Below, piece by piece: positions 1-14,031 of a stretch of DNA of 32,591 bases. Position numbers and translations under genes: made by a program. Where the stretch lies: positions 1-32,591 of the forward strand of contig JBFILX010000003.1 of the NCBI GenBank assembly GCA_041612035.1. The letters are read 5' to 3'. How positions within the stretch are numbered: the stretch's first letter is position 1; each line of letters begins with the position of its first letter. This stretch comes from Gemmatimonadales bacterium (GTDB lineage: Bacteria > Gemmatimonadota > Gemmatimonadetes > Gemmatimonadales > GWC2-71-9). The notes under the pieces were generated by a model. It did no database searches. It was not told the origin of the DNA and saw nothing but the letters and a program-made list of their open reading frames with translations.

Positions 1-18
1 CCCGCGGGCGCCTGACCG

Positions 19-1167
19 ATGCCGATCCAGGGCCCGCTCCGGGAACTCGGGATCCACGACGTGTTCCAGCTGCTCGACCTCAGCCGGAAGACGGGCGCCC
101 TCCGGGTCACCTCGGAGCTGCGGCAGAACGAGGGCACGATCTGGTTCGAGGCCGGCGCCGTGGTGGCGGCCACCATCCGGTCCAACCCGCACCGGCTGGG
201 CGACGTGCTCCTCCGCACCGGCAAGATCCGGGAGGAGGACCTGCTCCGGGCCAAGGCGATGCAGGAGGCCGGCGACCCCCGGCGGCTGGGCGAGATCCTG
301 GTGGCGATCGGGGCCGTGACGGCCAAGGAGATCGAGCGGCAGGTCCGCATCCAGGTCGAAGAGGTGGTGTTCGCCATGCTGGGCTGGTCCGAGGGCTACT
401 TCGTGTTCGAGGAAGGCGCCCCGGGAGAGGCCCCCGGCGACACCAGCGTCCGGGTGTCCACCGAGGCGCTGCTGATGGAGGGGGCGCGCCGGATCGACGA
501 GTGGGAGCGGATCCAGACCCGGGTGCCGCACCTCGGGGTCGTCCCCCACCTCAACCCGGCCGACGACGGACAGGCCGGCACCCTGAGTCTCACGCCGTTC
601 GAGTGGCGGGTGCTCGCCTCGTGCGACGGCTCGCTGGATGTGCGGTCGCTCGCGCGGGCGCTCGCGGCGGCCGAGTTCGACGTGGCGCGAACCCTGTTCG
701 GCCTGGCGGCGGCGGGACTGGTGGTGCTGCACGACCCGGCGGCGGCCACCGCCCGGGCGGCGCCGGACCGGGACCCGGATGCGCTGCTGCGCCAGGCCGA
801 GGAGTTCCTGCGCCGGGGCGACCCGGCCGCCGCCCGCACGGTGGCAGAGGCGATCGTGGCCCGGTATCCCGAGCAGGCCAGGGGCCATCTGCTGCTGGGG
901 CGGACGTTCCTGAGCGAGCGGCGCTTCCAAGAGGCCGAGGCGATCCTGCGGGAGGCGATCCGGGTCGGGGGCCCGGCGGCCCATCCGCTCCGGCTGCTGG
1001 GTGCGGCGCGGGCGGCGCCGGGCCGGCTCGAGGAAGCGGTCCAGGCGTGGAACGAGTGGCTGGCGCTGTCCAGCCGGCCGGCGGAGGAGGATCGCCACCT
1101 CGCCGCCGTGGGCCGGATGCGTGACGCCGCCCGGGCCCTGGCGGAGGGGCTGGGAGGGGCCGGGTGA
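19..1167 (+). CDS. DUF4388 (PATAN-like) protein with tandem MshEN-like motif, wHTH-like segment and C-terminal TPRs
   Basis: N-terminus 'IQGPLRELGIHDVFQLLDLSRKTGALRV...IWFEAGAVV' is typical of DUF4388. Two RLGxxLxxxGxxxxxxLxxxxxxQ repeats follow, then a 'LLMEGARRIDEW' helix and TPR-like C-terminal helices. Confidence 0.85.
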   Translation: MPIQGPLRELGIHDVFQLLDLSRKTGALRVTSELRQNEGTIWFEAGAVVAATIRSNPHRLGDVLLRTGKIREEDLLRAKAMQEAGDPRRLGEILVAIGAVTAKEIERQVRIQVEEVVFAMLGWSEGYFVFEEGAPGEAPGDTSVRVSTEALLMEGARRIDEWERIQTRVPHLGVVPHLNPADDGQAGTLSLTPFEWRVLASCDGSLDVRSLARALAAAEFDVARTLFGLAAAGLVVLHDPAAATARAAPDRDPDALLRQAEEFLRRGDPAAARTVAEAIVARYPEQARGHLLLGRTFLSERRFQEAEAILREAIRVGGPAAHPLRLLGAARAAPGRLEEAVQAWNEWLALSSRPAEEDRHLAAVGRMRDAARALAEGLGGAG

Positions 1168-1925
1168 GCCAGGACATCGCCGGCATGACCGCGCGGCTGG
1201 CGGCGGAGCCCGACAGCCTGGTGTTCCTGCCCCTGGGCGAGGCCCTGCGGCAGCGGGGACAACTGGACGCCGCCCTGGCGATCGCGGCCCGCGGCGTGGA
1301 GCGCTACCCGGACCTGGCGGACGCCCACGACCTGCTGGGACGGATCATGAGCGACCGGGGGACGGGGGACGCCGCGTTCGACGCCTGGACCGAGGCTCTG
1401 CGGCTCGACCCGCGGCACCTCGGGGCGCTTCGAGGGCTGGCATTCCTGGCCTACCGCGCCGGGGACCACCCCAGGGCCGAACGCCACCTCGCGGCCGCGG
1501 TGGCCCTCGCGCCGGACGACGCCGCGCTGCAGCGGGCGCTGGCCCGGGTCCGCACCGAGGTGGTGGCCACCCGTGCCAGCGCCCCGCCCCCGCGGTGGGA
1601 CGAGGCCGGCGGCGCCGTGCTGGTGGATGCGCAGGGCCGGCGGCTGGCGGGCCGCCTCGACGACGCGGCCGACCGGTCGGACGCCGTCGCCGCGGAGCTG
1701 GCGGGGGTGGGCCGCGAAGCGGAGCGCGCCGCCCGGCTGCTGGGGCTCGGCGCCTGGCGCTCCGTCGGCGTCGAGTGCCGCGAGGCCCAGTGGCACCTGG
1801 TGCCGCCCACGCCGGAGACGGTCCTGCTCGCGGTCGGCAGCCCCGCCACCCCTGCGGGCCGGCTGGCCCTCGTCACGGAGCGCTCGGCGGCGTCCGCCCG
1901 TCGATGGCTGGAGCGGCTGGCGTGA
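1164..1925 (+). CDS. TPR protein with C-terminal Roadblock/LC7-like domain
   Basis: GTG start overlaps the upstream stop (GTGA). About 3 TPRs, then 'GAVLVDAQGRRLAG...DAVAAELAGV...GLGAWRSVGVEC...VLLAVG', which follows the Roadblock pattern. Confidence 0.75.
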   Translation: MSQDIAGMTARLAAEPDSLVFLPLGEALRQRGQLDAALAIAARGVERYPDLADAHDLLGRIMSDRGTGDAAFDAWTEALRLDPRHLGALRGLAFLAYRAGDHPRAERHLAAAVALAPDDAALQRALARVRTEVVATRASAPPPRWDEAGGAVLVDAQGRRLAGRLDDAADRSDAVAAELAGVGREAERAARLLGLGAWRSVGVECREAQWHLVPPTPETVLLAVGSPATPAGRLALVTERSAASARRWLERLA

Positions 1926-2269
1926 CGGCGTTCGGGCCGGTCCTGGACGGCCTCACCCGGGTGGCCGGGGTCCGCAGCGCCCTCCTGGTCTCCGCCGACG
2001 ACGGGCTCCCCGTGGCGGACGCCACCATGGAGGGGGTGGACATCGAGGCGGCCGCCGCGCTGGCGGCCAGCCTGGTGGCGCGGCTGGGGCGGGCCCTGGG
2101 GGCCGCCGGGCACGGGCGGCCCACCCTGGTGCACCTGGAGGCGGCGGCGGGCTCGGTCATGGCGCTCCCCGCCGGCGACGAACTGCTGCTCGTGGCGGTG
2201 TGCGATCCCGACGCCAACCTGGGACTGCTCCGGCTGGTGCTGCGCGACTCCGTGGAGCGGCTGACCTGA
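1922..2269 (+). CDS. Roadblock/LC7 domain protein (MglB/MglC-like)
   Basis: 3' part of track ORF 1001..2269. GTG at 1922 overlaps the upstream stop, with GGAG about 8 nt upstream. Motif: 'VAGVRSALLVSADDGLPV...AAAALAASL...LLLVAVCDPDANLGLLRL'. Confidence 0.85.
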   Translation: MTAFGPVLDGLTRVAGVRSALLVSADDGLPVADATMEGVDIEAAAALAASLVARLGRALGAAGHGRPTLVHLEAAAGSVMALPAGDELLLVAVCDPDANLGLLRLVLRDSVERLT

Positions 2270-2730
2270 TGCGCAGCGTCGAGCCGTGGGTGGCGGCCCC
2301 CCTGGCCGAGTTCCTTCGCGAGTCCTCGGCCGACCTGGTGCTGCTGATGACGTCGTCGGGGCAGGTGGTGGCGCAGCACGGGTTCGCCCGGTCGCTGGAT
2401 GTCATGGCGGCCGCCTCCCTGGGCGCGGCGATCGTCGCCTCCACCGGTGAGCTGGCGCGGGTGATGGGGGTCCAGGCGTTCGGCCACGTGGTACATCAGG
2501 GCCGGAGCCGGAGCGTGCTGCTGGCGCCCTTCGCGATGCCGCGCGGAACCTGGATCGGGCTGATCGTCTTCGACCGCGAGACCACGGTGGGACTGGTCCA
2601 GCTGTTCTTCCGCGAGCTGGGGCGCGCCCTGTCGGTCGCGGCGCCCGCGACCCCGCCGTCACGGGTGGTGCTGGCCGAGCAGTTCGAGGCGGAGCTCAAT
2701 GCCAGCCTGCGCACCCTGTTCGGGCGCTGA
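2269..2730 (+). CDS. mglB: MglB-like Roadblock protein (putative GAP of MglA)
   Basis: ATG in a TGATG overlap, directly upstream of mglA. Motif 'LVLLMTSSGQVVAQHG...AASLGAA...LIVFDRETTVGLV' plus a C-terminal helix 'FEAELNASLRTLFGR'. Confidence 0.75.
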   Translation: MRSVEPWVAAPLAEFLRESSADLVLLMTSSGQVVAQHGFARSLDVMAAASLGAAIVASTGELARVMGVQAFGHVVHQGRSRSVLLAPFAMPRGTWIGLIVFDRETTVGLVQLFFRELGRALSVAAPATPPSRVVLAEQFEAELNASLRTLFGR

Positions 2731-2735
2731 CGCCG

Positions 2736-3338
2736 ATGCCGCTCGTCAACTTCACGACCCGCGAGATCACCTGCAAGCTGGTGTACTACGGCCCCGGCCG
2801 GTCCGGCAAGACGACCAACCTGCAGTACATCCACGGGCGGGTGCCCGACCAGCGGCGGGGCGCCATGGTCTCCCTGGCCACCCACGGCGACCGGACCCTG
2901 TTCTTCGATTTCCTCCCGCTCGACCTGGGATCCATCTCGGGATTCACCACGCGCTTCCAGCTGTATACCGTTCCGGGCCAGGTGTACTATGCCGCCACCC
3001 GCCGGCTGGTGCTCCAGGGGGCGGACGGGGTGGTGTTCGTGGCGGACAGCCAGGCGCGCCGGTTCGACGAGAACGTCGAGAGCCTGCGCGACCTGCACGA
3101 GAACCTGCGGCAGCAGGGCGTGGAGGCCTCGACGTTCCCGATGGTGTTCCAGTACAACAAGCAGGACCTGCCGACCGACCTCATCATGCCCCCGTCCGCG
3201 CTGGACCACGCGCTCAACTTCCGGGGGCGGCCCTCCCAGCCGGCCGATGCCCTGCGGGGGAGCGGCGTGTTCGAGACGCTCAAGGCGGCGGCGGGCCTGG
3301 TCCTGGAGCGGCTGGCCCAGCCGGCGGCGGAGTCATGA
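2736..3338 (+). CDS. mglA: MglA-family small GTPase
   Basis: 'KLVYYGPGRSGKTTNL' (G1), 'DRTLFFDFLP', 'LYTVPGQVYY' (G3), 'DGVVFVADSQ' and 'NKQD' (G4) closely match Myxococcus/Thermus MglA. Confidence 0.95.
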   Translation: MPLVNFTTREITCKLVYYGPGRSGKTTNLQYIHGRVPDQRRGAMVSLATHGDRTLFFDFLPLDLGSISGFTTRFQLYTVPGQVYYAATRRLVLQGADGVVFVADSQARRFDENVESLRDLHENLRQQGVEASTFPMVFQYNKQDLPTDLIMPPSALDHALNFRGRPSQPADALRGSGVFETLKAAAGLVLERLAQPAAES

Positions 3339-5317
3339 GCTTCCAGCCCGATCCGGCCCGGACCTTCGTCAGCTTCGTGGTCGGCGCCCCGAACCAGCTC
3401 GCGGCCGCGGCGGCGCGGGCCCTGGCCGACCTGGCCCGGCCGCCCTTCAATCCGCTCTACCTGCTGGGCGAGCCGGGCCAGGGGAAGACCCACCTGCTCC
3501 AGGCCATCGGGGCCCAGCGGCTCACCGTCGCCCCCGGCACCACGGTCGAGCTGGTGACCTGGGGGGGGCTGAGCGAGCAGCTGCTCGAGGCGGCGGCCTC
3601 CGGTCGGTCGGATGTCCTGCGTCCCTGTCGGGAGGCGGGCCTGCTTCTGCTCGACGACGTGGACCGGATGACCCAGTACGCGGTGGCGCGCCGGCCGATC
3701 CTCGACCTGCTCGACGCCCGGCTCACGCGGGGCCTCGCCACCGCCATGGCGGGCCGGCGTCCGCCGGGGGCCCTGCTGGGTCCGGAAGACCCCGCCGTCC
3801 GCCTGCTGGGCGCCGGGCTGGTGGTGGAGATCGGGCCGCCCGACGCCGCGCTGCGGGAGGAGATCGTCCGTTGGCACCTCGGCGCGGCGGGGGTTTCGTT
3901 CGCCCAGGCCGTGGTGGACGAGGTGGTCGGGCTCCCGCTGGGATCGGCGGCGGACCTGGTGGCCGCGGTCCAGCGTCTCATTGCCTTCCAGACCGTGTCG
4001 CCCACCCCGCTCGCCCCGTCGCAGGCGCGGGTGCTGATCACGGGGGTGCTGGAGGAGCCGTTCCCGGTGGCCGTCGCCGCGGGGGTCCCGGCGGCCGACG
4101 CGGCGGCGCCCCCGGGGCCGGCACCCGCCCGCGGGCTCGACGAGGGCGACGAATTCGGCTCGTTCCTGTCCGAGGTGGTGGCCGGGATCAGCCACCAGGT
4201 GGACCGGTGGCGGACCGAGGTGGGCGATGCGGTGCTCCGCTTCGAGGCGGCGGGGTACCACACCGCGCGGCTCGAGGCGCTGCTCGACCAGGAGCTCCCC
4301 GCGCAGCCGGAACAGGTGCTGGCGCGCTACGAGGCGGACGTGGCGCGGCTGGAGCAGATCGCGGCGGAAGTGCGGGCCGTGGCCCCGGACCTGGGCGGCC
4401 ACGAGGTGCTCCGCGACCCGGACCGCGTGGAGGAGGCGGAGCAGCTGCTCGAGGAGGCCAGGACCCGCGACCTCTCTCCTCACCGTCCCGATCCCGGCCT
4501 GCGCCTGGACGACCTGATCGAGGGACCGTCCAACCGGGCCGCCCTGGACGCCGTCCGCGCCCTGGTGGCCCGGGCGCCCGGCGCGACCGCGCTCTGCCTG
4601 GTGGGGGACCCCGGCACCGGGAAGTCCCACCTGCTCCACGGCCTGGGCAACGCCCTCGCGGAGGCGGGGACCGCCGGCGTGGTGTGCGTGTCGGCGCAGA
4701 CCCTGGCCCGGGAGATCGAGGACGAAGCGCGCGCGGGGCGCCTGGGCGACTGGCGGCGGCGTCACCGGTGGATCGGCGCGCTCCTGGTGGACGACGTGCA
4801 CCTCCTCGGGGAGCGGCGGGAGGCGCAGGAGGTGCTGCTGGAGCTGGTGGACCAGCTCGGACGCGACGGGCGGCCGGTCGCGGTCACGGCGGCCATCCCG
4901 GTGGCCGAGCTGGAGGCGGTGGAGCCCCAGCTGCTCGCCCGGCTGGCCAGCGGCGCCGTGGTCGACCTCCCGCGGCCCGACCGCGAGGTGCGGCTGGGGC
5001 TGGTGCTGCGGTGGCTCGACCAGCTGCCCGCGCGCCCCGCCTCCGACCTGGCCGCGTACATCGCCGGGCGACCCGCGGGGTCGGTGCGCGCCGTGCAGGT
5101 CATGCTGCAGCGGGTGCTCCGGCAGGCGGCCGCGGCGGGGAGCGCGCCGGACGTGGCCCTGGCGCGGCAGGTGCTGGAGGGGCCGCCCGGCGCGGGGCGC
5201 CTGCTCGGGGCCCGACCCGGCGTGCTGGGCCCCTCGGTCGCGGGTCCCCGGCTGCGGGAGAAGCTCATCGAGCGCTGGCCCGAGGCGCGCGATCTCCTGA
5301 CGGAGGAACTGTCCTGA
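3335..5317 (+). CDS. Tandem DnaA/Hda-like AAA+ ATPase (two ATPase modules, no DnaA domain I or IV)
   Basis: ATGA overlap with the mglA stop. Module 1: 'TFVSFVVGAPNQLA...FNPLYLLGEPGQGKTHLLQAIG...LLLLDDV'. Module 2: 'GPSNRAA...GDPGTGKSHLL...LLVDDVH...LLARLASG...PDREVR...SVRAV'. Confidence 0.85.
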   Translation: MSFQPDPARTFVSFVVGAPNQLAAAAARALADLARPPFNPLYLLGEPGQGKTHLLQAIGAQRLTVAPGTTVELVTWGGLSEQLLEAAASGRSDVLRPCREAGLLLLDDVDRMTQYAVARRPILDLLDARLTRGLATAMAGRRPPGALLGPEDPAVRLLGAGLVVEIGPPDAALREEIVRWHLGAAGVSFAQAVVDEVVGLPLGSAADLVAAVQRLIAFQTVSPTPLAPSQARVLITGVLEEPFPVAVAAGVPAADAAAPPGPAPARGLDEGDEFGSFLSEVVAGISHQVDRWRTEVGDAVLRFEAAGYHTARLEALLDQELPAQPEQVLARYEADVARLEQIAAEVRAVAPDLGGHEVLRDPDRVEEAEQLLEEARTRDLSPHRPDPGLRLDDLIEGPSNRAALDAVRALVARAPGATALCLVGDPGTGKSHLLHGLGNALAEAGTAGVVCVSAQTLAREIEDEARAGRLGDWRRRHRWIGALLVDDVHLLGERREAQEVLLELVDQLGRDGRPVAVTAAIPVAELEAVEPQLLARLASGAVVDLPRPDREVRLGLVLRWLDQLPARPASDLAAYIAGRPAGSVRAVQVMLQRVLRQAAAAGSAPDVALARQVLEGPPGAGRLLGARPGVLGPSVAGPRLREKLIERWPEARDLLTEELS

Positions 5318-6939
5318 TGGCGATCAAGGGCAGTCTCCAGGAAGCGGGTCTCCCCGACGTGATCCAGATGCTCTACCTGGGCCGACGCACCGGGTGCCTG
5401 TCGGTCTCCGAGCGGGGAAGCCTCGCCAGCCTCTACTTCGAGGACGGCTGGGTCACGGACGCCGCGATGGTGAACCGGCCCGACCGGCTGGGGGACATCC
5501 TGGTGCGCTCCGGCCGCCTGACGCCGGCGCAGCTGGAAGAGGCCATCGCCATGCAGGCCCGGCAGCAGGGGCGCCGGCTCGGGGCGGTCCTGGTGGAGCT
5601 GGGCCATCTCCAGCCCGACGACATCCGTCGGGCGGTCCGGCGGCAGGTGGAGGAGGCGGTGTACGCCATGTTCGGCTGGCGCCGGGGGTCCTTCTCGTTC
5701 GAGCCGGGGGTGCGCACCCCGAACCCCGACAGCGTCCGCCTGGCCCCGGAGGCGCTCCTGCTGGAAGGCGCCCGGCGGGTGGACGAGTGGGCCCTGATCC
5801 AGTCGAAGATCCCGTCGTTCGACCTGGTGTTCGCCGTGGACCGGAGCCGGGCCGCCACCGCCGACCCCGAGCTGTCGGACCTGCAGCGCCGGCTGCTGGA
5901 TCTGCTGGACGGCGTGCGGGACGTGCGCACCCTGGTGGACGAGGCGGGGTCCACCGAATTCGACACCTGCCGCGCCCTGTACGGCCTGGTCACCGCGTGC
6001 CTGGCGCAGCGGGTCGGCACCTCGCCGCCCGCCGCGGGCCGGCCGCGCGAGGCGCAGATCGAGGAGCACCGGAACCTCGGGGTCGCCTTCTACCGGACGG
6101 GCATGCTGGAGGAATCGCTGCGCGAGTTCCGCCGGGTCATGGAGCTTCGTCCGGCGGAGGGGGCCGCGCCCTTCCACCTCGGGCTCATCGCGGCCCGACA
6201 GGGTCGCTGGGCGGACGCCTCCTATTTCTTCCGCCGGGCGGCGGACCGCGCGGGACCCCGGGCCGCCATCCTTCACAACCTGGGGGTCGCGCTCGCCCTG
6301 GCCGGTGAACCCGACCAGGCGGAGACCACGCTGCGGGAAGCCACGAGCCGGGCCCCCGACGGGCCCCGCACGCTCATCGCGTGGGCCATCCTCGCCCTCG
6401 ACCGCGGCGACGTCCACCCCGCGCTGGTCCGGCTGGAGCGGGCGCGTGGCCTCCTCGATCCGGAGATCCCGGCGCTCTGGTACTGGGCCGCGGTGCGGGC
6501 CCTGGCCGGCGTGGGCGACCTCGACCGCGCGCTGGAGGTGGCCACCGAGGGGGTGGATCGCTGGCCCGGGGTGCCGGCGCTCCTCAACAACCAGGCGGTC
6601 CTGCTGGAGGCGGCGGGCGAGCTGCCCGGGGCCGAAGCCGCGCTGCAGCAGGCGCTGGAACGGGATCCCGGGCTGCCCGAGGTCTCCAAGAATCTCGGGG
6701 ACGTGCTCTATCGGCTGGGCCGGTACGACGAGGCATGGACCGCCTTCCAGCGCGCGCTGCGGCTGCGGCCCGAGGGTGGCGACGACCTGCACTTCAAGCT
6801 CGGCAACCTGGCCCTGCGCCGGGGTGATGCGGAGGACGCACGATCCCACTGGCGCCGGGCGGTCGAGCTCAATCCCCGGCACCAGCTGGCCCGCGCCAAC
6901 CTGCAGAGCGCCGTGGGGAGCGATGCCGCTCTCCGATGA
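5317..6939 (+). CDS. DUF4388 (PATAN-like) protein with tandem MshEN-like motif and multiple TPRs
   Basis: ATG in a TGATG overlap, with GGAGG upstream. 'IKGSLQEAGLPDVIQMLYLGRRTGCLSV', RLG repeats, 'LLLEGARRVDEW' and a long TPR array (NLGVAFY, HLGLIA, NLGVAL, NLGDVLY, KLGNLA). Confidence 0.88.
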   Translation: MAIKGSLQEAGLPDVIQMLYLGRRTGCLSVSERGSLASLYFEDGWVTDAAMVNRPDRLGDILVRSGRLTPAQLEEAIAMQARQQGRRLGAVLVELGHLQPDDIRRAVRRQVEEAVYAMFGWRRGSFSFEPGVRTPNPDSVRLAPEALLLEGARRVDEWALIQSKIPSFDLVFAVDRSRAATADPELSDLQRRLLDLLDGVRDVRTLVDEAGSTEFDTCRALYGLVTACLAQRVGTSPPAAGRPREAQIEEHRNLGVAFYRTGMLEESLREFRRVMELRPAEGAAPFHLGLIAARQGRWADASYFFRRAADRAGPRAAILHNLGVALALAGEPDQAETTLREATSRAPDGPRTLIAWAILALDRGDVHPALVRLERARGLLDPEIPALWYWAAVRALAGVGDLDRALEVATEGVDRWPGVPALLNNQAVLLEAAGELPGAEAALQQALERDPGLPEVSKNLGDVLYRLGRYDEAWTAFQRALRLRPEGGDDLHFKLGNLALRRGDAEDARSHWRRAVELNPRHQLARANLQSAVGSDAALR

Positions 6940-7744
6940 CCCCGGCTTCGCGCTGGTGCTCCAGCGACTGGCCGGCCGCGGGCTCCCGCCGCTCGACGCC
7001 TACAAGGACAACTGCCTCCGCCGCCGGCTGCAGGTCCGCCTGCGCGCCTGCGGGGCCCGGACCCTGACCGAGTACGCCCAGGTGCTCGAGACGACACCGG
7101 ACGAGGTGGAGCGGCTCCGGGAGGCGCTCACCATCAACGTGACCGGGTTCTTCCGCAACCCGGAGACCTGGGAGCGTCTGCGGTCGGAACTGCCCGCGCT
7201 GGTGTCCGGCCCCTGGCGCCAGATCGCCGCGTGGAGTGCCGGGTGTGCCTCGGGGGAGGAGGCGTGGACGCTGGCCGCCCTCCTCGCCACGGTCATGGGA
7301 GAGGGCGGCATCCGCGTCTCCAGCGCCCGCCTGCGCGTGGACGCGACCGACATCGATACGGCCTGCCTGGCCACCACCGCGGCGGGCGTCTATCCGGATC
7401 AGGCGTTCACCGACGCCCCGGCCGCCATGCGGGAGCGCTGGACCGTCCCCGACCGGGACGGGCGCCGGATGGTTCCCCAGCTCCTCCCCGTGGTCCGCGC
7501 GCTGGCGCACGACATGACCCGCGACCATCCCCCCGACCCGCCCTACCACCTGATCGTGTGCCGGAACGTGATGATCTACTTCACCCGGCCCGTGCAGGAG
7601 GCCCTGTTCGCGCGGTTCGCTGGCGCCCTGCGGCCCGGCGGGCTCCTGGTGCTCGGCAAGGTCGAGTCGGTGTCCGCCCCGGCCCGGGACCGGTTCGCGG
7701 TGGTGGACCACCGCGAGCGGATCTTCCGGCGAACCGATGACTGA
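6923..7744 (+). CDS. cheR: Chemotaxis protein-glutamate methyltransferase CheR
   Basis: 'YKDNCLRRRL', 'LTINVTGFFRNP', 'WSAGCASGEE', 'ATDID' and 'LIVCRNVMIYF'. ATG at 6923 follows GGGGAG. Confidence 0.93.
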   Translation: MPLSDDPGFALVLQRLAGRGLPPLDAYKDNCLRRRLQVRLRACGARTLTEYAQVLETTPDEVERLREALTINVTGFFRNPETWERLRSELPALVSGPWRQIAAWSAGCASGEEAWTLAALLATVMGEGGIRVSSARLRVDATDIDTACLATTAAGVYPDQAFTDAPAAMRERWTVPDRDGRRMVPQLLPVVRALAHDMTRDHPPDPPYHLIVCRNVMIYFTRPVQEALFARFAGALRPGGLLVLGKVESVSAPARDRFAVVDHRERIFRRTDD

Positions 7745-8222
7745 GGAACTGGTGGTCGTCCCGATGGGCGGGCTCGAGGTCCGCGCCGCCCCCGCGGTGC
7801 TGACCGCGATCGGGCTGGGCAGCTGCGTCGCGATCATGATGCTCGATCCCGGGACCCGGACCGGGGGGCTGGCCCACGTGCTCCTCCCGGTGCCGGGCGA
7901 CGCCGGGGCGGTTCCGCCCGGGCGCTACGCGGCCAGTGCGGCTCCGCTGCTCTTCCGGCAGCTGGTGGCGACCGGGGCCGACCCCGCACGGTTCCAGGCC
8001 TGGCTGGTCGGCGGCGCCACCATGTTCGCGGCGCTCATGGCGCCGGACACGGTCTCCATCGGGGACCGCAACGTGACGGCGGCGCGGGAAGCCCTCGACC
8101 GGCTCGGGGTTCCGATCGCGGGGGAGGCGCTCGGCGGGACCCGGGGCCGCACCGTGACGCTGGACCTGGCCCGGGGGCGGGTCGAGGTCCGGTCGGTGGG
8201 ACAGGGGGTCCATGTCCTCTGA
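7737..8222 (+). CDS. cheD: Chemoreceptor glutamine deamidase CheD
   Basis: 'GLGSCVA' (catalytic Cys), 'GGLAHVLLP' (His), 'GGATMF', 'IGDRN' and 'GGTRGRTV'. Confidence 0.93.
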
Positions 8223-9294
8223 GACGGCCTCGGTCCTGGTGGTGGACGACAGCGCCTTCTTCCGGCGGCTGCTGTCGGACCTCATCGCGGGCTCGGGGCG
8301 ATACCGCGTGGTGGGCAGCGCCCGCCACGGCATGGACGCGCTCCGCAAGGTGCATCAGTTCGAGCCCGATCTCGTGACGATGGACCTGGAGATGCCCGAG
8401 CTCGACGGGCTCGGCGCCATCGGGTACATCATGTCCGAGGCCCCCCGCCCGGTGGTGGTGGTGAGCGCGTACGTGGGGGCGGGGACGGTCGGCGCGATCC
8501 GGGCCCTCGAGCTGGGCGCGGTGGAACTGGTGCCCAAGGAGGAGGATCGCAGTCCCGCGTCGCTCGAGCGGCTGCGCGACCGGCTGCTCGCCGCGCTGGA
8601 CGCGGCCCGGTCGGCCGACCTCAGCCGGGTGTCCGTCCTCGCCCGTCCCCAGCATCGCCCGCCGCCGGCCCTGGTGCACGCCCTCCCGGGCCGGGCCCGG
8701 TTCTGCGTGGCGGTCGCGTCGTCCACCGGGGGCCCCCGCGCCCTGGCCGACCTGGTGCCGCAGTTGCCCGCCGGCCGGCGGGCCGGGGTGGTCATCGCCC
8801 AGCACATGCCGCCCGGCTTCACCCGCAGTCTCGCCGAACGGCTGGCGGGGATGAGCCGGCTCCAGGTGGTGGAAGGGGAGGACCGGGCGCCGCTGCTGCA
8901 GGACACGGCCTACGTCGCCCCGGGCGACTGGCACATGGCCGTCGAGACCGGACCCGACGGCCCCCGCCTGCGGCTGGGCCAGTCCCCCGCGGTCTGGGGC
9001 GTGCGGCCGGCGGCCGACCCGCTCTTCCGGTCGGTCGCCACCGCTTACGGTGACCGGGCCATCGGGGTGGTACTGACGGGGCTCGGCAAGGACGGTGCGC
9101 AGGGGCTCCGGGCCATCCGCGACGCGGGCGGGTACGGGATCGCCCAGGACCGCGAGACGTCGGTCATCTACGGCATGCCGGCCGCGGCCGCGGCGGCCGG
9201 CGGGGCGGAGGCGATCCTGCCCCTCGGCGCCATCGCGGACGCGGTCGCCGCCCGGCTCGAACGGCTGGCGCTGACCCGGGCCGAGACGACGTGA
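8212..9294 (+). CDS. cheB: Chemotaxis response regulator protein-glutamate methylesterase CheB
   Basis: REC domain (VVDDS, TMDLEMP, VSA, PK) plus esterase triad SSTGG / QHMP / LTGLGKDG, and 'SVIYGMP'. Confidence 0.95.
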
Positions 9295-9917
9295 GCGAGG
9301 TCCCCCGGCAGGACCGGCTCGGGGCCTCCACCTTCATGGAGAAGGGGTGGAGCCTCATCGCCTCGGGCGACCCGGAACGGGCCATCGCGGCGCTGCAGGA
9401 GGCCCGGCGCCTGGCGCCCGACGACGTGGACGCCGCGGCCCTGCTGGGCTGGGCCGAGACCCTGACCGGGCGCCACGACGACGCGCTGCAGACCCTGACC
9501 GGGGTCCTGGCGCGCGATCCGGCGCATGCCATGGCGCGGGTGAATCTCGGGTACATCTGCCTGCGGCGGGGCGTCTTCGGCGAGGCCATCGAGCACCTCA
9601 CCCGGGTGATCCACGAACAACGCGACCGCAAGGCGGTGCTGTACGCCCACCACTACCTTGGCCTGGTGTACCTGGAACGGGGGATGGCGGACGATGCCGC
9701 GGGGTTCCTGCGCGAGGCGGTGGCCCTGGGGCCCAACCTGATCGAGGCCCGGTACGACCTCGGGCGCGCGCTCGCGCTGGCCGGCCGGCCGGCGGAGGCG
9801 CTCGCGGTCTGGCGGGAGGGCGCGGCGGTCGGGGCCTATTCGCCGTGGGCGCTGCGGTGCGTCGAGGCGGTCGCGCGGGTCGAGGCCGGAGAGGAGCCGC
9901 CATCCTCGCCGGGCTGA
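9291..9917 (+). CDS. Tetratricopeptide repeat protein
   Basis: GTGA overlap with cheB and repeated TPR helices (ALLGWAE, NLGYIC, YLGLVY, DLGRAL). Confidence 0.85.
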
Positions 9918-10816
9918 TCCTGGCCCTCCAGTCGGTCTTCGCGCAGGTGCCGGCGGGGTTTCAGGTCGCGGAAGTCGGCGAGGTGACCGTGATCGCGCCG
10001 GCCAGCCGGATGGCCCTGGGCCTGTCGCTGGCCGACCTGGCCTCCCGGCCGATGGCGTTCCCCGGCCTCGAGCCGCGCCCGGTGGGCCGGATGCGCCTGA
10101 TCGTGCTGGAGGGAAACGGCGCCCGGCAGGTGGTGCGCGGCAGCGTGCCCGAGTGGGGGGTGGGGCTCGCCCTGCCGGGCTCGCGCACGATCATCATCCG
10201 GACCGACGCGCCCGATCCGGCGGCCGTCCTGCGGCACGAGCTGGCCCACCTGGCGCTGCACGACGCCATCCGGAGCCGGGTGCCGCTCTGGTTCGACGAG
10301 GGGTACGCCGTGGTGGCCGCGGGAGAGGTGGCGAGGTTCCGCGGTCTCCAGCTCAACCTGGCGGTGGCCCGGGGCCGGGTGGGGGGCTTCGACGCGCTGG
10401 ACCGGATGCTCCGGCAGGACGCGCTCCGGGCCGGGATCGCCTACGCGCTGGCCGGGTCGGCGGTGCTGCACCTGCTCCGGCTCCAGCCCTCCGGCTCACT
10501 GGCCCCCCTGATCGACCGGCTGGCCGCGGGCGAGCCGTTCGCCGAAGCCCTGGAGCGGACGACGGGGTATACCACCGGGACCTTCGAACGGTCCTGGCGC
10601 ACCGATCTCCGGCGGCGGTACAATGTCTTCCTCTGGCTCGGCGCGGGCGGCGGGTGGGCCGTGCTGGCGGCGGCCGTGGCGGGGATCGCGTGGTGGCGCC
10701 GCCGGCGGGACCGGCCCCGGCGGGCCGCGCTGGACGAGGGGTGGGTGGCGGAAGGGTGGCAGGCGGAGGTGGGGGAGGGCGGCGATCCGCTTGACCCGGG
10801 GCATTCGGCTGGGTAG
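9857..10816 (+). CDS. Exported, membrane-anchored zinc metallopeptidase-like protein (peptidase MA / gluzincin)
   Basis: 3' part of track ORF 9347..10816. The start is uncertain; GTG 9857 gives a basic plus hydrophobic signal-like N-terminus. 'RHELAH...PLWFDEGYA' (HExxH...E), then a C-terminal TM segment followed by RRRRDR. Confidence 0.72.
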   Translation: MRRGGRAGRGRRGAAILAGLILALQSVFAQVPAGFQVAEVGEVTVIAPASRMALGLSLADLASRPMAFPGLEPRPVGRMRLIVLEGNGARQVVRGSVPEWGVGLALPGSRTIIIRTDAPDPAAVLRHELAHLALHDAIRSRVPLWFDEGYAVVAAGEVARFRGLQLNLAVARGRVGGFDALDRMLRQDALRAGIAYALAGSAVLHLLRLQPSGSLAPLIDRLAAGEPFAEALERTTGYTTGTFERSWRTDLRRRYNVFLWLGAGGGWAVLAAAVAGIAWWRRRRDRPRRAALDEGWVAEGWQAEVGEGGDPLDPGHSAG

Positions 10817-10827: not shown

Positions 10828-11019
10828 ATGCCCCAAACCGAGATGGCCCCCGGCGGCCGGCGTCACGCGCTGGGCCGCAGGAACCTCGTCGTGCTGGCTG
10901 CGGCGGTCGCCACGCTCGTCGCGGGGTATGTGCTGCTGGGGGCCGGAAGCACGAGCCTCGCGGCGGTGCTGCTGGTCGTGGGGTATTGTGTGCTGTTCCC
11001 CCTGGCCATCGCGCTCTGA
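10828..11019 (+). CDS. Small two-TM membrane protein (DUF3098-like)
   Basis: 63 aa: 'RRNLVVLAAAVATLVAGYVLL...SLAAVLLVVGYCVLFPLAI'. The family resemblance is from memory only. Confidence 0.65.
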   Translation: MPQTEMAPGGRRHALGRRNLVVLAAAVATLVAGYVLLGAGSTSLAAVLLVVGYCVLFPLAIAL

Positions 11020-11082: not shown

Positions 11083-11157
11083 GGGCGAATAGCTCAGCTG
11101 GTCCAGAGCGCCTGCCTTACACGCAGGAAGTCGGGGGTTCGAATCCCTCTTCGCCCA
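11083..11157 (+). tRNA. tRNA-Val (anticodon TAC), CCA not encoded
   Basis: Acceptor stem GGGCGAA/TTCGCCC, D-arm GCTC..GAGC, anticodon arm CCTGC-CT TAC AC-GCAGG and T-loop GTTCGAATC. Confidence 0.97.
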
Positions 11158-11225: not shown

Positions 11226-12932
11226 ATGCGTCTGATTCGTTTCGTGTGTCTCGCCTTGTTTGCGGTGGTCGGCGTGGTGCCGGCCCAGGCGCAGCTGCGT
11301 GCCAACCGGCCGCCGCCCCGCACCCAGAACCTGCCGCGGCTCCTCGTGGCCACGCCGTATCCCGCCAACACCGGCGACAGCGCCGCCTCGGTGCGGGTGG
11401 GCGACGGGATGCGCAAGCGGATGGACGACATCGCGGGCCGCTGGTTCAACACGGTCACCCGCGAGCAGATGAACGACGCCCTGCTCCAGTACGCCTATCC
11501 GCCCGACGCGGTGCTGCCGCCCCCGGTGGCCCGCACCCTGGCCACCCAGCTGCAGGCGCGGTTCCTGGTCAGCTCGACCCTGGCGCGGTCGGAGGGCGGC
11601 CGCTACACGGTGCAGGTCCGAGCCGCGGGGCTCAACGACAAGGCGGGGTACACGATCTCGCTGGTGCAGGCCCCGGGGCAGAGTCTCGATGACTTCGGCA
11701 AGGCGTCGGCCGACGCCTTGCAGGGCGCGTTCCGGGCCTACGAGGACGCACGGAAGTGCTGGGACCAGCAGACCACGCGCCCGCGGGACGCGATCGAGTC
11801 GGCCCAGAAGGCGCTGCGCGACCAGCCGGGTCACGGACTGGCCCACTACTGCCTGGGCGAGATCGCCGCCGCGCAGGGGCAGCCGCGCGACTCCCTGATC
11901 AAGCACTACAGCGCCGCCGCCGCGGGCGACCCGCAGAGCCTCGAGGCCTGGAGCCAGCTGGCGATCCAGTATCAGCAGGCCGGCGACAGCGCGAGCACCG
12001 TCAAGGTGTTCCAGGAGATGCTCCGGGTCTCCCCCACCAACCAGCCCCTCCGGGAGCAGGCGTTCCGCCTGTTCCTGCAGTACGGCCGCCCCGAGGCGGC
12101 CCGGCAGGTGGCGGAAGAGGGTCTGGAGATCGATCCGACCAACGCCGACCTGTGGGACCTGAAGAGCAACGCCTGCCTCTTCCTCGAGGACTTCACCTGC
12201 GCCGTGGACGCCCTGGAGCAGGTCCACGAGGTCGACCCGGCCAAGGCCGACTCGGCGTTCTTCAACAAGATCAGCGTGGCCGCCTCCCAGCAGCCGGACA
12301 CCGCGCGGCTGCTCCGGTGGGCGCGGCAGGGGGTCCAGAAGTACCCGGACAACCCGACCCTGCTGGCCCACCTGGCCACCGCCTACGGCTTCGCGGGGCC
12401 GCTGGACAGCGCGATGGTCGCGACGACCCGGCTCATGGCGGTGGACTCCTCCGACCTGCGCCCGGTCCTGAAGACGATCCAGACCCTGGCCACCGCCAAC
12501 CGGGTGACCGAAGTCGAGCCGCTGGGCCGGTACGTGGAGCGGCTGGGGGACGAGGACGACAAGCAGACCTACGCCGTCATCCTGATCAACGGGGCGCTGC
12601 CGCTCCTGCAGCAGGAAGGACAGGACCTGGAGGGGGCCGCGCGCATGGCGCGGAAGGCCGTCTCCCTGTCGGTCTCGGGCGGACGGGTGGCCGCGAACGC
12701 GAACTACGTGCTGGGCCTCGCGACCGCGCTCCAGCTGCCGCCCCGCGACCAGCCGATCATGGACCAGAAGTCCTGTCCGCTGGCGCAGGAGTCGAAGGCC
12801 CTGCTCGACGAGGCGGCGGCCGCGCTGACCGCCGGGCAGACGGTGCGCCCCGACGCGGTCGCCCAGTACATGCGGATCGTGGACGGCTTCCGGCCCCGGG
12901 TGGAGTCGCAGCTCCGCGCGTTCTGCCGGTAA
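11226..12932 (+). CDS. Exported TPR-repeat protein with N-terminal alpha/beta domain
   Basis: ATG at 11226 with GGAGG upstream. Sec-type signal 'MRLIRFVCLALFAVVGVVPAQA' followed by many TPR-like helices. Confidence 0.8.
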   Translation: MRLIRFVCLALFAVVGVVPAQAQLRANRPPPRTQNLPRLLVATPYPANTGDSAASVRVGDGMRKRMDDIAGRWFNTVTREQMNDALLQYAYPPDAVLPPPVARTLATQLQARFLVSSTLARSEGGRYTVQVRAAGLNDKAGYTISLVQAPGQSLDDFGKASADALQGAFRAYEDARKCWDQQTTRPRDAIESAQKALRDQPGHGLAHYCLGEIAAAQGQPRDSLIKHYSAAAAGDPQSLEAWSQLAIQYQQAGDSASTVKVFQEMLRVSPTNQPLREQAFRLFLQYGRPEAARQVAEEGLEIDPTNADLWDLKSNACLFLEDFTCAVDALEQVHEVDPAKADSAFFNKISVAASQQPDTARLLRWARQGVQKYPDNPTLLAHLATAYGFAGPLDSAMVATTRLMAVDSSDLRPVLKTIQTLATANRVTEVEPLGRYVERLGDEDDKQTYAVILINGALPLLQQEGQDLEGAARMARKAVSLSVSGGRVAANANYVLGLATALQLPPRDQPIMDQKSCPLAQESKALLDEAAAALTAGQTVRPDAVAQYMRIVDGFRPRVESQLRAFCR

Positions 12933-12981
12933 GGACTACCACGGAGCGGGGGGCCGGACTAAATTGTCCGGCTCCTCGCGA

Positions 12982-13056
12982 GGGGCTGTAGCTCAGCTTG
13001 GTTAGAGTGCCGCACTGTCACTGCGGAGGTCGCGGGTTCGAGCCCCGTCAGCCCCG
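12982..13056 (+). tRNA. tRNA-Asp (anticodon GTC), CCA not encoded
   Basis: Acceptor stem GGGGCTG/CAGCCCC, anticodon arm CCGCA-CT GTC AC-TGCGG and T-loop GTTCGAGC. Confidence 0.97.
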
Positions 13057-13073
13057 CTCCACGCGGTCTGCAC

Positions 13074-13112
13074 GACACCCCGCCCGGTTCGCCGGGCGGG
13101 GTGTCCGTCTTT
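13074..13112 (+). terminator. Perfect 14-bp hairpin with UUCG loop; putative intrinsic terminator or attenuator after tRNA-Asp
   Basis: GACACCCCGCCCGG-TTCG-CCGGGCGGGGTGTC, followed by CGTCTTT (weak U-tract). Confidence 0.65.
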
Positions 13113-14031
13113 GATGACCGGGGCGCCCCCCGCCGGCTGGCACGCCCCGGTGCTCGTGGGGGAGGTGCTGGCGGCCGCCGGCCGTCCGGCCCGTGCCGTG
13201 GACGCGACGCTGGGCGACGGAGGTCACGCCGCCGCGCTGGTCGCCGCCGGCGCGGAGGTGCTCGGGATCGACCGCGACCCGGAGGCGCTGGTCCGGGCGG
13301 GGGCCCGGCTGGCCGGAGCGCCGGTGCGCCTGGTGCCGGGTGCCTTCGACGACCCGGCGGTGCTGGAACAGGTGGCCGCGTTCCGGCCCGACTTCGCCCT
13401 GCTCGACCTGGGGGTCTCCTCCCGGCAGCTGGACGACGACGCCCTGGGCTTCAGCTTCCGGCCCGGGACCCTGCTGGACATGCGGATGAGCCGGGCCGGC
13501 CCCACCGCCGCCGACCTGCTCAACCGGATGGACGCGGCGGACCTGGCCCGGATGTTCGCCGACCTGGCCGACGAGCGCCGGGCCCGGCGCATGGCCGGGG
13601 AGGTGGTGCGTCGCCGGGCCCGTGAGCCGTTCCGGACCAGCGACGACCTGGTCAACGCGATCCGGGCCGTGCTCGGGCCGTCGAGTGGACCCTCGGACTT
13701 CGCCCGGCTCTTCCAGGCGGTCCGGATCACCGTGAACGATGAGCTCGACCGCCTCGAGCGGGCCCTCCCGGCCTTTCGCGACGCCCTGGAGCCGGGCGGC
13801 ACCCTGGCCGTGATCAGTTATCATTCGGGAGAGGACCGGCTGGTCAAGCGGGCCTTCCGCGAGTGGGCGCGTCGCTGCGTCTGCCCCCCGGCGTTCCCGG
13901 TCTGTCGCTGTCGGGGCCGACCGCTGGGGTCGCTGCCGACGCGTCGGGCGATCACCCCCTCGCCGGAGGAGTCCGCCGCGAACCCGCGGGCCCGCAGCGC
14001 TCGCCTTCGACTCTTTCGCACCGCGACATGA
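13111..14031 (+). CDS. rsmH: 16S rRNA m4C1402 methyltransferase RsmH (MraW)
   Basis: 'HAPVL', 'VDATLGDGGHA', 'DLGVSSRQLD', 'LDMRM', 'FQAVRITVNDEL', 'ISYHSGEDRLVK' and 'NPRARSARLR'. The start may be ATG 13114. Confidence 0.95.
   Translation: MMTGAPPAGWHAPVLVGEVLAAAGRPARAVDATLGDGGHAAALVAAGAEVLGIDRDPEALVRAGARLAGAPVRLVPGAFDDPAVLEQVAAFRPDFALLDLGVSSRQLDDDALGFSFRPGTLLDMRMSRAGPTAADLLNRMDAADLARMFADLADERRARRMAGEVVRRRAREPFRTSDDLVNAIRAVLGPSSGPSDFARLFQAVRITVNDELDRLERALPAFRDALEPGGTLAVISYHSGEDRLVKRAFREWARRCVCPPAFPVCRCRGRPLGSLPTRRAITPSPEESAANPRARSARLRLFRTAT

Follow-up and report, generated by a model that had tools for sequence, protein, structure and literature searches.

A long conserved operon of the Gemmatimonadales that joins a chemosensory pathway to an MglA/Roadblock module and a tandem DnaA-derived ATPase

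The closest described counterpart of the locus we analyze here is the Frz-MglA/MglB circuit of Myxococcus xanthus, in which a Che pathway with CheR/CheB adaptation is combined with the MglA GTPase and a Roadblock GTPase-activating protein. Its kinase FrzE is a CheA-CheY fusion, its receptor FrzCD is cytoplasmic, and FrzZ and FrzX serve as regulators. Since its genes are scattered, the link between Frz and MglA had to be worked out genetically. The stretch of DNA we examined, referred to below as the window, is one whole contig of 32,591 b (JBFILX010000003.1; C3 of the source genome G000) from a Gemmatimonadales bacterium whose genome amounts to 2.2 Mb in 259 contigs, is 95.7% complete and has a GC content of about 75%. 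Twelve genes at its start, g1 to g12, account for most of a long operon, conserved in the Gemmatimonadales, that holds chemosensory genes, an MglA/Roadblock switch and an AAA+ ATPase derived from the replication initiator DnaA, and we think it very probable that the cluster as a whole is one functional unit.

The likeness to Frz extends to the cell, which moves, if at all, by pili and not by flagella, and to the tetratricopeptide repeat (TPR) proteins of the cluster, which recall the TPR partners of MglA described for Myxococcus (SgmX) and Bdellovibrio. However, the two systems differ in several respects. The switch genes of the cluster lie inside the che operon, while those of Myxococcus are elsewhere in the genome, and the switch itself is a second, diverged MglA/MglB pair, the canonical pair being kept on another contig (C39). 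The cluster CheA carries no fused receiver, CheC and CheD are present, and the cluster adds two Roadblock proteins, two proteins that join a PATAN domain (DUF4388) to TPRs, and the DnaA-derived ATPase. A second comparison is offered by the cyanobacterial Tax/Pix systems with their PatA-type PATAN-REC proteins, where PATAN is also encoded in a chemosensory cluster and, in Synechocystis, the PATAN domain serves as the output and binds PilB1 and PilC (bioRxiv 10.1101/2021.06.11.447907, in part). In our cluster PATAN is joined to TPRs instead and CheY is a separate protein, and the cyanobacterial systems, as far as that excerpt describes them, have no MglA module. The actinobacterial conservons (CvnA-D) are likewise operons in which a sensor kinase is coupled to a Roadblock protein and a GTPase of the MglA family, but in the parts of PMC4316618 that treat them they rely on a membrane histidine kinase and DUF742 and are without Che, PATAN, TPR or AAA+ proteins. 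The GTPase of our cluster, by contrast, resembles Group 1 MglA (226 bits).

No description of this operon or of the tandem DnaA-type family was found in the literature we searched, as judged from listings and abstracts and leaving aside supplements and the 2006 work of Makarova et al., who reportedly noted MglA-PATAN gene neighbourhoods. The original prediction, which was made from the letters of the window, knew of no characterised system with such a set of genes. That statement agrees with our search, but it needs to be tempered by the resemblance to Frz-MglA/MglB and by the proximity of MglA and PATAN that had already been noted. Group 1 MglA has been recorded in the Gemmatimonadetes, with occasional PATAN neighbours and with variable Group 1 neighbourhoods (Wuichet & Sogaard-Andersen 2015, PMC4316618, in part). 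The text of that paper contains none of the terms 'DnaA', 'CheR' or 'chemotaxis', and its supplementary neighbourhood tables may already list the cluster. In the phylum surveys examined by searching for terms, PMC10581226 among them, flagella and pili are mentioned, and chemotaxis and MglA are not; a report on cultured members (PMC11271474) deals with polar appendages and division planes but reports no motility genes. The cluster is an undescribed, strongly conserved single-operon variant of the theme that leads from a chemosensory pathway to MglA and polarity.

All twelve frames proposed within 19-10816 are open, with a GC content of 0.92-0.97 at the third codon position versus 0.45-0.58 at the second, and a sliding frame plot of codon-position GC puts every gene of the contig on the + strand. 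Domain calls were made with Pfam and NCBIfam models and with matches to solved structures, and these searches confirmed the assignments made beforehand (MglA/Roadblock, tandem DnaA-like, DUF4388-TPR and CheR/CheD/CheB; Table 1). The packing is as tight as had been described. Nine of the eleven junctions overlap, with GTGA at 1164, 1922 and 9291, TGATG at 2269 and 5317, ATGA at 3335, and longer overlaps of 17 nt at 6923, 8 nt at 7737 and 11 nt at 8212. These overlaps had been taken as the sign of one coupled unit. They do indicate operon packing, but 11 of the 15 junctions of the dcw operon further downstream overlap as well, thus overlap is the ordinary packing of G000 operons and nothing peculiar to the cluster. 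One position has to be corrected: 9914 is CTG, hence no start codon, and g12 must begin at a nearby GTG, at 9845, 9857 or 9947. A scan with the sigma-70 consensus returned two sites in 14.4 kb of this 75% GC DNA, and no promoter inference was drawn from it. The sequencing runs listed for window 1500-9500, nine from three studies, are all of DNA or contigs, with no RNA run among them.

The prediction had also described the pathway as self-contained, and here it has to be corrected, because cheW, cheY, cheA, cheC and a gene for an 891-aa TPR protein (TPR891) lie upstream on a different contig, C23, and the receptors are elsewhere. The g1 gene starts 18 b from the contig end, and the end of C23 encodes the first 166 codons of g1 with 165 of 166 amino acids identical, which places C23 directly upstream of the window. 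On C23 the order is the housekeeping genes for IleRS, a DksA-type zinc finger and a pseudouridine synthase and then, tightly spaced, CheW, CheY, CheA, CheC, TPR891 and g1. Unbroken assemblies of relatives have the same cheW-cheY-cheA-cheC-TPR891-g1 order without interruption. CheY is a single-domain protein here, and CheA, laid out as Hpt-P2-dimerisation-HATPase-CheW, lacks a receiver. The CheA dimerisation domain is matched once in G000, and both CheW-domain matches of the genome are on C23. Two receptor genes are found elsewhere: C27 has one for a 703-aa MCP with GAF domains, and one for a HAMP-MCP stands at an edge of C169. The Che set is then complete, with CheA, CheW, CheY and CheC on C23, CheR, CheD and CheB in the window, and the two MCPsignal genes at other places. 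This unit is the only CheA pathway of G000, and seven genes outside the Che set (TPR891 and g1-g6) stand between its cheC and g7. The full operon order is cheW-cheY-cheA-cheC-TPR891, followed by g1-g6 and by g7, cheR, cheD, cheB, in some genomes cheW, g11 and g12. As for the break itself, the ends of C23 and C3 share about 516 b (C23 16836-17335 versus window 1-516) with one amino-acid difference, and what interrupted the assembly was evidently a strain-level polymorphism within g1.

A comparison of gene neighbourhoods had been set beforehand as one test of the idea that the Che proteins, the MglA/Roadblock module and the DnaA-like ATPase are joined in one unit. The order from cheY to g12 is kept in relatives from three families of the Gemmatimonadales, and the idea is borne out. 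A g6-type match (E<=1e-38) was found in 37 of 41 genomes, these being 40 relatives and G000, with the unpublished G021 counted in this tally as well as in the flagellin and CheA tallies below. The other four have only a match at the level of true DnaA; two of them are 77% complete and two make up genus g24. In an evenly sampled set from the phylum, which takes in the unpublished G082, 98 of 151 genomes match g6 at E<=1e-25. By family these matches come to 71/72 in f1, 21/31 in f2, 2/2 in f3, 1/1 each in f4 and f5 and 1/2 in f8 (the unpublished G120, making this the one result that hangs on an unpublished genome alone), and at this threshold there is no match in the 41 genomes of six other families. 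The gene map behind the locus counts in Table 1 placed 19 proteins on 29 loci from 29 genomes that were chosen for their g6 hits or for g6 absence, so these counts are not population frequencies, and several absences reflect the 20-kb limit or contig ends. Those loci from the genome collection that carry names belong to 'uncultured Gemmatimonadaceae' and 'Gemmatimonadales' metagenome-assembled genomes (MAGs).

The natural variants of the operon are as informative as its conservation. In many relatives cheB and g11 are separated by one or two cheW genes, and in one uncultured Gemmatimonadaceae MAG (L016, 16420-17772, +) g11 is fused to an N-terminal CheW domain. One relative, G020, has kept TPR891, g1-g7, g11 and g12 and lost cheR, cheD and cheB; there is no match to CheY, CheA or CheC in the 3 kb fetched upstream of its TPR891, and none to CheA anywhere in its 96%-complete genome. 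Another, G095, has kept cheW, cheY, cheA and cheC with one PATAN-TPR gene, cheR, cheB and g11, and TPR891 and g1-g6 are missing. In G072 there is no match to g6, the cluster MglA or CheA and only a weak match to the TPR region of g7, and in G108 there is none to g6, g7 or CheA (the cluster MglA was not searched there). As the losses in G020 and G095 come in blocks, they follow functional lines, and TPR891 together with g1-g6 acts as a cassette. The MglA cassette is thus a separable module inside the Che operon. At least the g7 and g11 proteins, on the other hand, belong to the Che pathway proper, since g11 can be fused to CheW and a PATAN-TPR protein stays with the che genes when the cassette is missing.

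Some further variants were seen in passing. In L037 a gene for an AAA_22 ATPase occupies the cheB-g11 position, beside cheW. The two loci of genus g24 (L064 and L065) have a shortened g1 with no TPR, a g2 that is reduced to its Roadblock domain and a shortened g7, and cheD, g11 and g12 are missing from them. Two single-contig f2 genomes, G091 and G126 (L066 and L067), gave no tblastn match to g2-g4 or cheR.

Turning to the GTPase module, g5 aligns from end to end with the solved M. xanthus MglA (residues 1-194 versus 1-192 of 5ymx_A, 226.7 bits). The segments GPGRSGKT (the P-loop), DRTLFFDF, TVPGQ and NKQD (NKxD) are invariant in the 23 sequences aligned. We take the Arg of the DRTLFFDF segment and the NKxD G4 motif to have the roles that make them hallmarks of MglA. 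The G3 motif of the MglA family has Thr in place of Asp, as TxxGQ (PMC3000849, in part). With all of these hallmark motifs invariant, the protein looks like an active GTP switch, as judged from its sequence, and across the order its identity stays at 70-81% versus neighbours that drift to 30-50%. G000 has a canonical mglB-mglA pair on C39 (L046, 11232-12411), beside dnaX-ybaB-recR, in which MglB is a 163-aa protein with 111.6 bits to solved MglB and MglA scores 290 bits and has an internal insertion of about 30 aa before its last helix. The pair in the window is therefore a diverged second copy, and we name it MglA2/MglB2. MglB2 (g4) matches the solved MglB 6h5b_B with 43.4 bits (E 3.6e-10), its gene ends 5 nt ahead of g5, and the mglB2-mglA2 order is found in 25 of the 29 loci. 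The cluster encodes three Roadblock proteins (g2, g3 and g4), and the best solved relatives of g3 are Roadblock proteins and MglB at E 9e-6 to 4e-5. The extra Roadblock domains of g2 and g3 recall MglC and RomY, the multiple Roadblock regulators of Myxococcus, by likeness only.

The most unusual member of the cassette is g6, which is laid out as a first ATPase module (about aa 1-235), a middle domain (about 265-400), a second module (about 400-615) and a conserved C-terminal tail. As in DnaA and Hda, both modules have Walker A and B motifs of the DnaA type as well as the regions of sensor I and of the box VII arginine, and in the family consensus each also shows the sensor-II Arg. In an alignment of 28 sequences the Walker A lysines K51 and K430 and the Walker B residues D107, D108 and D486 are invariant or nearly so, and each module has a conserved box VII region. 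In the window's own g6, module 1 has another residue in place of the sensor-II Arg, as read from the alignment. Module 2 aligns with solved DnaA domain III (8bv3) from Walker A through sensor II. However, g6 departs from DnaA and Hda in having two ATPase modules per chain, a middle domain and tail of its own, and no domain I or IV; Pfam lists only Bac_DnaA, twice. Its scores are below the equivalog cut-offs of both DnaA (TIGR00362, 219.1 versus 343.9) and Hda (TIGR03420, 117.5 versus 194.8), and a separate gene of DnaA length is found on C82 of G000. Public records call these proteins 'DnaA/Hda family protein' (in Gemmatimonadales and Gemmatimonadota MAGs) or 'chromosomal replication initiation ATPase DnaA', and in a chemosensory context the replication-initiator label is probably misleading. 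The g6 family is a previously undescribed, DnaA-derived one. It is small, with 125 representatives at E<=1e-30 among 1.84 billion, and the tandem form was not found outside the Gemmatimonadota in one genome-collection scan, the 125 representatives themselves being without names. One candidate from an Actinomycetota MAG (L019) turned out to be an ordinary DnaA: the two g6 modules align to one and the same part of it, and the locus has none of the other cluster genes. The match in L018 is a 1.7-kb fragment.

The two parts of g6 that are specific to the family deserve a closer look. At the start of the middle domain, which spans about 130 aa, is an acidic DEFxxF(L/M) helix, and the very C-terminus carries the tail EK-x-W-x-WP...R-IEE, which by profile coverage ends at most four residues from the end in 155 of 171 stored homologues that are at least 600 aa long and hold the middle domain. 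In genus g24 (G031 and G035) g6 is replaced by a gene for 72-73 aa between mglA2 and g7, and the DEFxxF helix and the tail are the only parts of the g6 profile that these mini-proteins match, scoring 22.4 and 15.7 bits where none of 2000 shuffles exceeded 3.0. The g6 of G107 is down to a single ATPase core but still has the middle domain and the tail, along with an acidic linker. From these truncations it follows that what stays constant are the two short motifs, with the ATPase modules as an accessory regulatory layer, and the functional core of the family, on this comparison, appears to be two short docking motifs. Six TPR proteins are encoded in the operon, and the acidic character of the C-terminal tail suggests that it would dock in a TPR groove. 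In other systems CheY~P binds acidic amphipathic helix peptides. Two further forms were noted: the g6 of G091 has a module 2 without the lid and keeps the tail, and the stored proteins P0103, P0105 and P0118 (800-1900 aa) cover the middle domain and may be fusions.

The two PATAN-TPR proteins, g1 and g7, score far above the PF14332 gathering cut-off of 25 (Table 1). Neither has a Response_reg hit in Pfam, and with TPRs in its place they are unlike PatA-type PATAN-REC proteins. The original prediction had called both of them MshEN-like and had proposed a cyclic di-GMP (c-di-GMP) input. The first of these calls is borne out only in part: the NCBIfam model of an MshE-related c-di-GMP motif (NF053729) reaches 55.5 bits over a cut-off of 38 in g7, g1 stays under that cut-off, and Pfam MshEN is not listed for either protein at E<=0.01. 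MshEN-type receptors have two 24-residue motifs in tandem, for which a relaxed form has been published (PMC5013675, in part). The relaxed motif is present in 20 of 24 g7 sequences, at positions around 57 and 87 and twice in 8 of them, and in 14 of 24 g1 rows, one of which (L034) is a mis-assigned g7. Models of NfrB and of glycosyltransferases also give weak matches to g7. G000 has seven GGDEF matches. A c-di-GMP input through the PATAN proteins is plausible from these motifs, which are the whole of its basis, and it is less certain in G000 than in the relatives.

Downstream, the operon ends with g12, whose translation shows an HELAH motif and a C-terminal hydrophobic segment, and is bounded by tRNA-Val. 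The tRNA gene is at the same place in all 16 of the relatives' loci scanned. Beyond it come g13, tRNA-Asp and a hairpin, and then rsmH, ftsL, ftsI, murE, murF, mraY, murD, ftsW, murG, murC, ftsQ, ftsA, ftsZ, an M23 peptidase gene, ftsY and recG. The tRNA-Asp gene was found in 11 of the 16 loci scanned, the remaining loci ending earlier or being unchecked there. The g13 protein has kept only 23-68% identity in the loci compared; it is probably periplasmic and outside the operon. Since conserved tRNA genes and the hairpin intervene, the signalling operon and the dcw operon are neighbours but separate units. A small open frame (window 10843-11019, +), about 58 codons long and hydrophobic in two places, lies between g12 and tRNA-Val, and no mraZ is present ahead of rsmH (window 12932-13114), so that dcw begins directly with rsmH. 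A reading of the cluster as anti-phage defence was dropped: PADLOC gave only P-loop-level matches to g6 (<=20.3 bits) and a generic TPR match to g11, and none to the seven other proteins scanned.

Table 1. Features of the operon and its surroundings. Locations are window positions unless a locus or contig is named.
Feature	Location	Strand	Description and evidence	Loci with a match (of 29)
cheY, cheA, cheC	C23		Che genes upstream of the window	25 each
TPR891	C23		891-aa TPR protein	27
g1	19-1167	+	PATAN (DUF4388) + TPR, 382 aa; DUF4388 115.9 bits, TPR families (Pfam)	27
g2	1164-1925	+	TPR + Roadblock/LC7, 253 aa; TPR families, Robl_LC7 24.5 bits; GTGA overlap with g1	
g3	1922-2269	+	Single-domain Roadblock/LC7, 115 aa; Robl_LC7 44.3 bits	
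g4	2269-2730	+	Weakly MglB-like Roadblock protein (MglB2), 153 aa	
g5	2736-3338	+	MglA paralogue (MglA2), 200 aa; 226.7 bits to solved MglA	28
g6	3335-5317	+	Tandem DnaA-domain-III AAA+, 660 aa; Bac_DnaA in 2 stretches	26
g7	5317-6939	+	PATAN (DUF4388) + long TPR, 540 aa; DUF4388 129.2 bits; MshE-type motif at aa 57-110	29
g8 (cheR)	6923-7744	+	CheR methyltransferase; Pfam CheR 139.2 bits + CheR_N	24
g9 (cheD)	7737-8222	+	CheD; Pfam CheD 86.7 bits	24
g10 (cheB)	8212-9294	+	CheB (REC + methylesterase); CheB_methylest 203.2 bits, Response_reg 64.8 bits	27
g11	9291-9917	+	TPR protein, 208 aa; TPR families	27
g12	about 9947-10816	+	MA-clan zinc peptidase, hydrophobic C-terminal anchor; Peptidase_MA_2 45.3 bits; start GTG 9845, 9857 or 9947	22
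tRNA-Val(TAC)	11083-11157	+	ARAGORN + Rfam 73.3 bits; downstream operon boundary	
g13	11226-12932	+	TPR protein, signal-peptide-like N-terminus, flanked by tRNA-Val and tRNA-Asp	26
tRNA-Asp(GTC)	12982-13057	+	ARAGORN + Rfam	
Hairpin	13074-13105		14 bp, 12 GC; between tRNA-Asp and rsmH	
g24 mini-gene	L064 8427-8648	+	Replaces g6	
g24 mini-gene	L065 11324-11542	-	Replaces g6	

What the pathway controls is a matter of weighing the evidence for pili, flagella and other outputs. G000 has the genes of a type IVa pilus, with pilB (MshEN+T2SSE)-pilT-pilC on C16 and pilM on C235, as well as a Tad locus and a PilB-REC fusion. A PilB/GspE-type ATPase with MshEN and a C-terminal receiver is encoded in L056 (C78, 3100-8800, -), adjoining a 1202-aa hybrid histidine kinase (PAS, Hpt), and may be a second, phosphorelay-controlled pilus or secretion motor. 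Myxococcus MglA governs the polarity of pili, sorts the pilus motors and acts with TPR partners. We give an even chance to a Frz/Mgl-like circuit that steers the type IVa pilus or the polarity of the cell.

A number of observations weigh against a circuit for pili or polarity and should be kept in view. CheC and CheD are typical of flagellar systems, and three flagellated relatives (G008, G029 and G037) have one CheA, so that the pathway may serve flagella there. PilM occurs without the cluster in G108 and G083, and pili are therefore not tied to it. The g4 protein is only weakly MglB-like, with Robl_LC7 at 16.4 bits (cut-off 23) and NF052242 at 34.6 (cut-off 200). As for the c-di-GMP input, NF053729 scores 33.6 in g1, under the cut-off of 38, and the window's g7 fits neither the strict nor the relaxed MshEN motif, two of its hydrophobic positions being R and H. 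The operon ends with the probably exported peptidase g12, to which no role is assigned. Synteny reaches as far as the tRNA genes and dcw throughout the order, which makes gene order a weak guide to function when taken alone. In the part of the phylum survey that covers them, marine Gemmatimonadota MAGs are without type IV pilus genes (PMC10581226); G000 has them.

We also have to consider that this is an ordinary flagellar chemotaxis operon of the CheC/CheD type, with the MglA, Roadblock, PATAN and DnaA-like genes as passengers or in the service of placing the flagellum. The che set is complete, CheC and CheD included, CheY is strongly conserved (75-93% identity among the loci compared), and the three flagellated relatives just mentioned have only the cluster CheA. 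Flagella are patchy in the phylum according to the portion of PMC10581226 that deals with them, and the ancestor may have been flagellated. We nevertheless regard this as unlikely, because the cluster is kept in genomes in which flagellin was not found: 33 of the 41 searched, among them the 95.7%-complete G000 and 7 other genomes of its genus (0/8). Of the 41 genomes, 8 gave a flagellin match, which in 7 exceeded the family cut-off, and four of these seven (G009, G013, G019 and G025) carry a second CheA. CheA as such is present in 38 of the 41 genomes, in a single copy in 31, and wherever the locus was fetched the single copy lies in the cluster. The CheW-g11 fusion, and the PATAN-TPR protein that stays with the che genes in the absence of the MglA cassette, place at least these two proteins in the pathway. 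The lack of any functional unit, with the order kept only through regional synteny in a moderately related order, would be in keeping with the tRNA genes, g13 and the dcw genes holding their places too. This is very hard to believe in view of the overlapping start and stop codons, the fusion of CheW to a TPR protein and the conservation of MglA2 over that of its drifting neighbours. The losses also come in blocks: all che genes on both sides in G020, TPR891 and g1-g6 in G095, and, in G072 and G108, the cluster genes searched for there, apart from the weak match to the TPR region of g7 in G072.

Two other outputs would leave motility aside. The operon could serve the cell cycle or the polarity of the division site, with the DnaA-derived ATPase reporting replication status and dcw as the target; what it controls could be the asymmetric division planes and the polar spherical appendages known in Gemmatimonadota. 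Its position just upstream of rsmH-ftsL-ftsI...ftsZ is conserved across the order, g6 is derived from a replication initiator ATPase, and cultured members show polar spherical appendages and an unusual placement of division planes (PMC11271474, in part). Between the cluster and dcw, though, stand two tRNA genes (tRNA-Val and tRNA-Asp), the gene for the secreted TPR protein g13 and the 14-bp hairpin, which are conserved as well, and neither DnaA domain I nor IV is listed in g6, which leaves it without the DNA-binding domain. Genus g24 has lost the AAA+ modules and G107 has half of them, with the remainder of the cassette retained, so that they are dispensable in some lineages, and G072 and G108 live without the cluster. 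A role in the cell cycle, which the original prediction had entertained, thus seems improbable to us. A non-motility output, such as exopolysaccharide, biofilm or development, of the sort known from Che systems with alternative cellular functions, would have the MglA cassette and the exported peptidase act on the envelope. The membrane-anchored and probably exported zinc peptidase g12 does end the operon and has a match in 22 of the 29 loci, the secreted g13 follows it, and MshE-type motifs are also found in polysaccharide synthases under c-di-GMP control, in keeping with the weak matches of g7 to the NfrB and glycosyltransferase models. The characterised partner families MglA, MglB and PATAN, however, all point to the control of pili or polarity, and the operon encodes neither a glycosyltransferase nor export functions, which makes this output quite unlikely.

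If the circuit does act on pili or polarity, a mechanism could look as follows. The two receptors would drive CheA, with adaptation provided by CheR, CheB, CheD and CheC, and CheY~P would act on the polarity module rather than on a flagellar motor, as Frz does in Myxococcus. MglA2 would be the GTP switch, and MglB2 and the other two Roadblock proteins would set its GTPase or exchange cycle. The PATAN-TPR proteins would be the output adaptors that touch the pilus motor (PilB/PilC), like the cyanobacterial PATAN, and their MshE-type motif may add a c-di-GMP input. The g6 protein could be an ATP-gated scaffold or timer, with the DEFxxF helix and the WP...R-IEE tail as its essential parts, and its tail could be docked by a TPR domain or by CheY. 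On this reading, the most economical one, the module centred on MglA2 would then position or activate type IVa pili.

A bolder version, which we hold to be improbable but worth stating, would make g6 an ATP-driven hub that evolved from a replication initiator. CheY~P would bind to its DEFxxF helix, its tail would sit in a TPR carboxylate clamp, and the ATPase would gate or time the GTPase cycle of MglA2. If this were true, a bacterial polarity circuit would have g6 as its third nucleotide switch, and the operon would link chemosensing, a Ras-like switch and an AAA+ protein of the initiator clade. Such a hub could set the asymmetric division planes or the polar appendages that are peculiar to the Gemmatimonadota.

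These findings bring a whole circuit into one operon, with the kinase, adaptation enzymes, GTPase, Roadblock regulators, PATAN/TPR adaptors and ATPase side by side, in a phylum that is abundant and poorly studied. They also add a new DnaA-derived family, now labelled a replication initiator in public records, that has two short motifs as its core, and an input of c-di-GMP through the PATAN proteins is predicted. The natural deletion variants, which lack the che genes, the cassette, or one or both of the AAA+ modules, can be used as a parts list for the route from a chemosensory signal to polarity.

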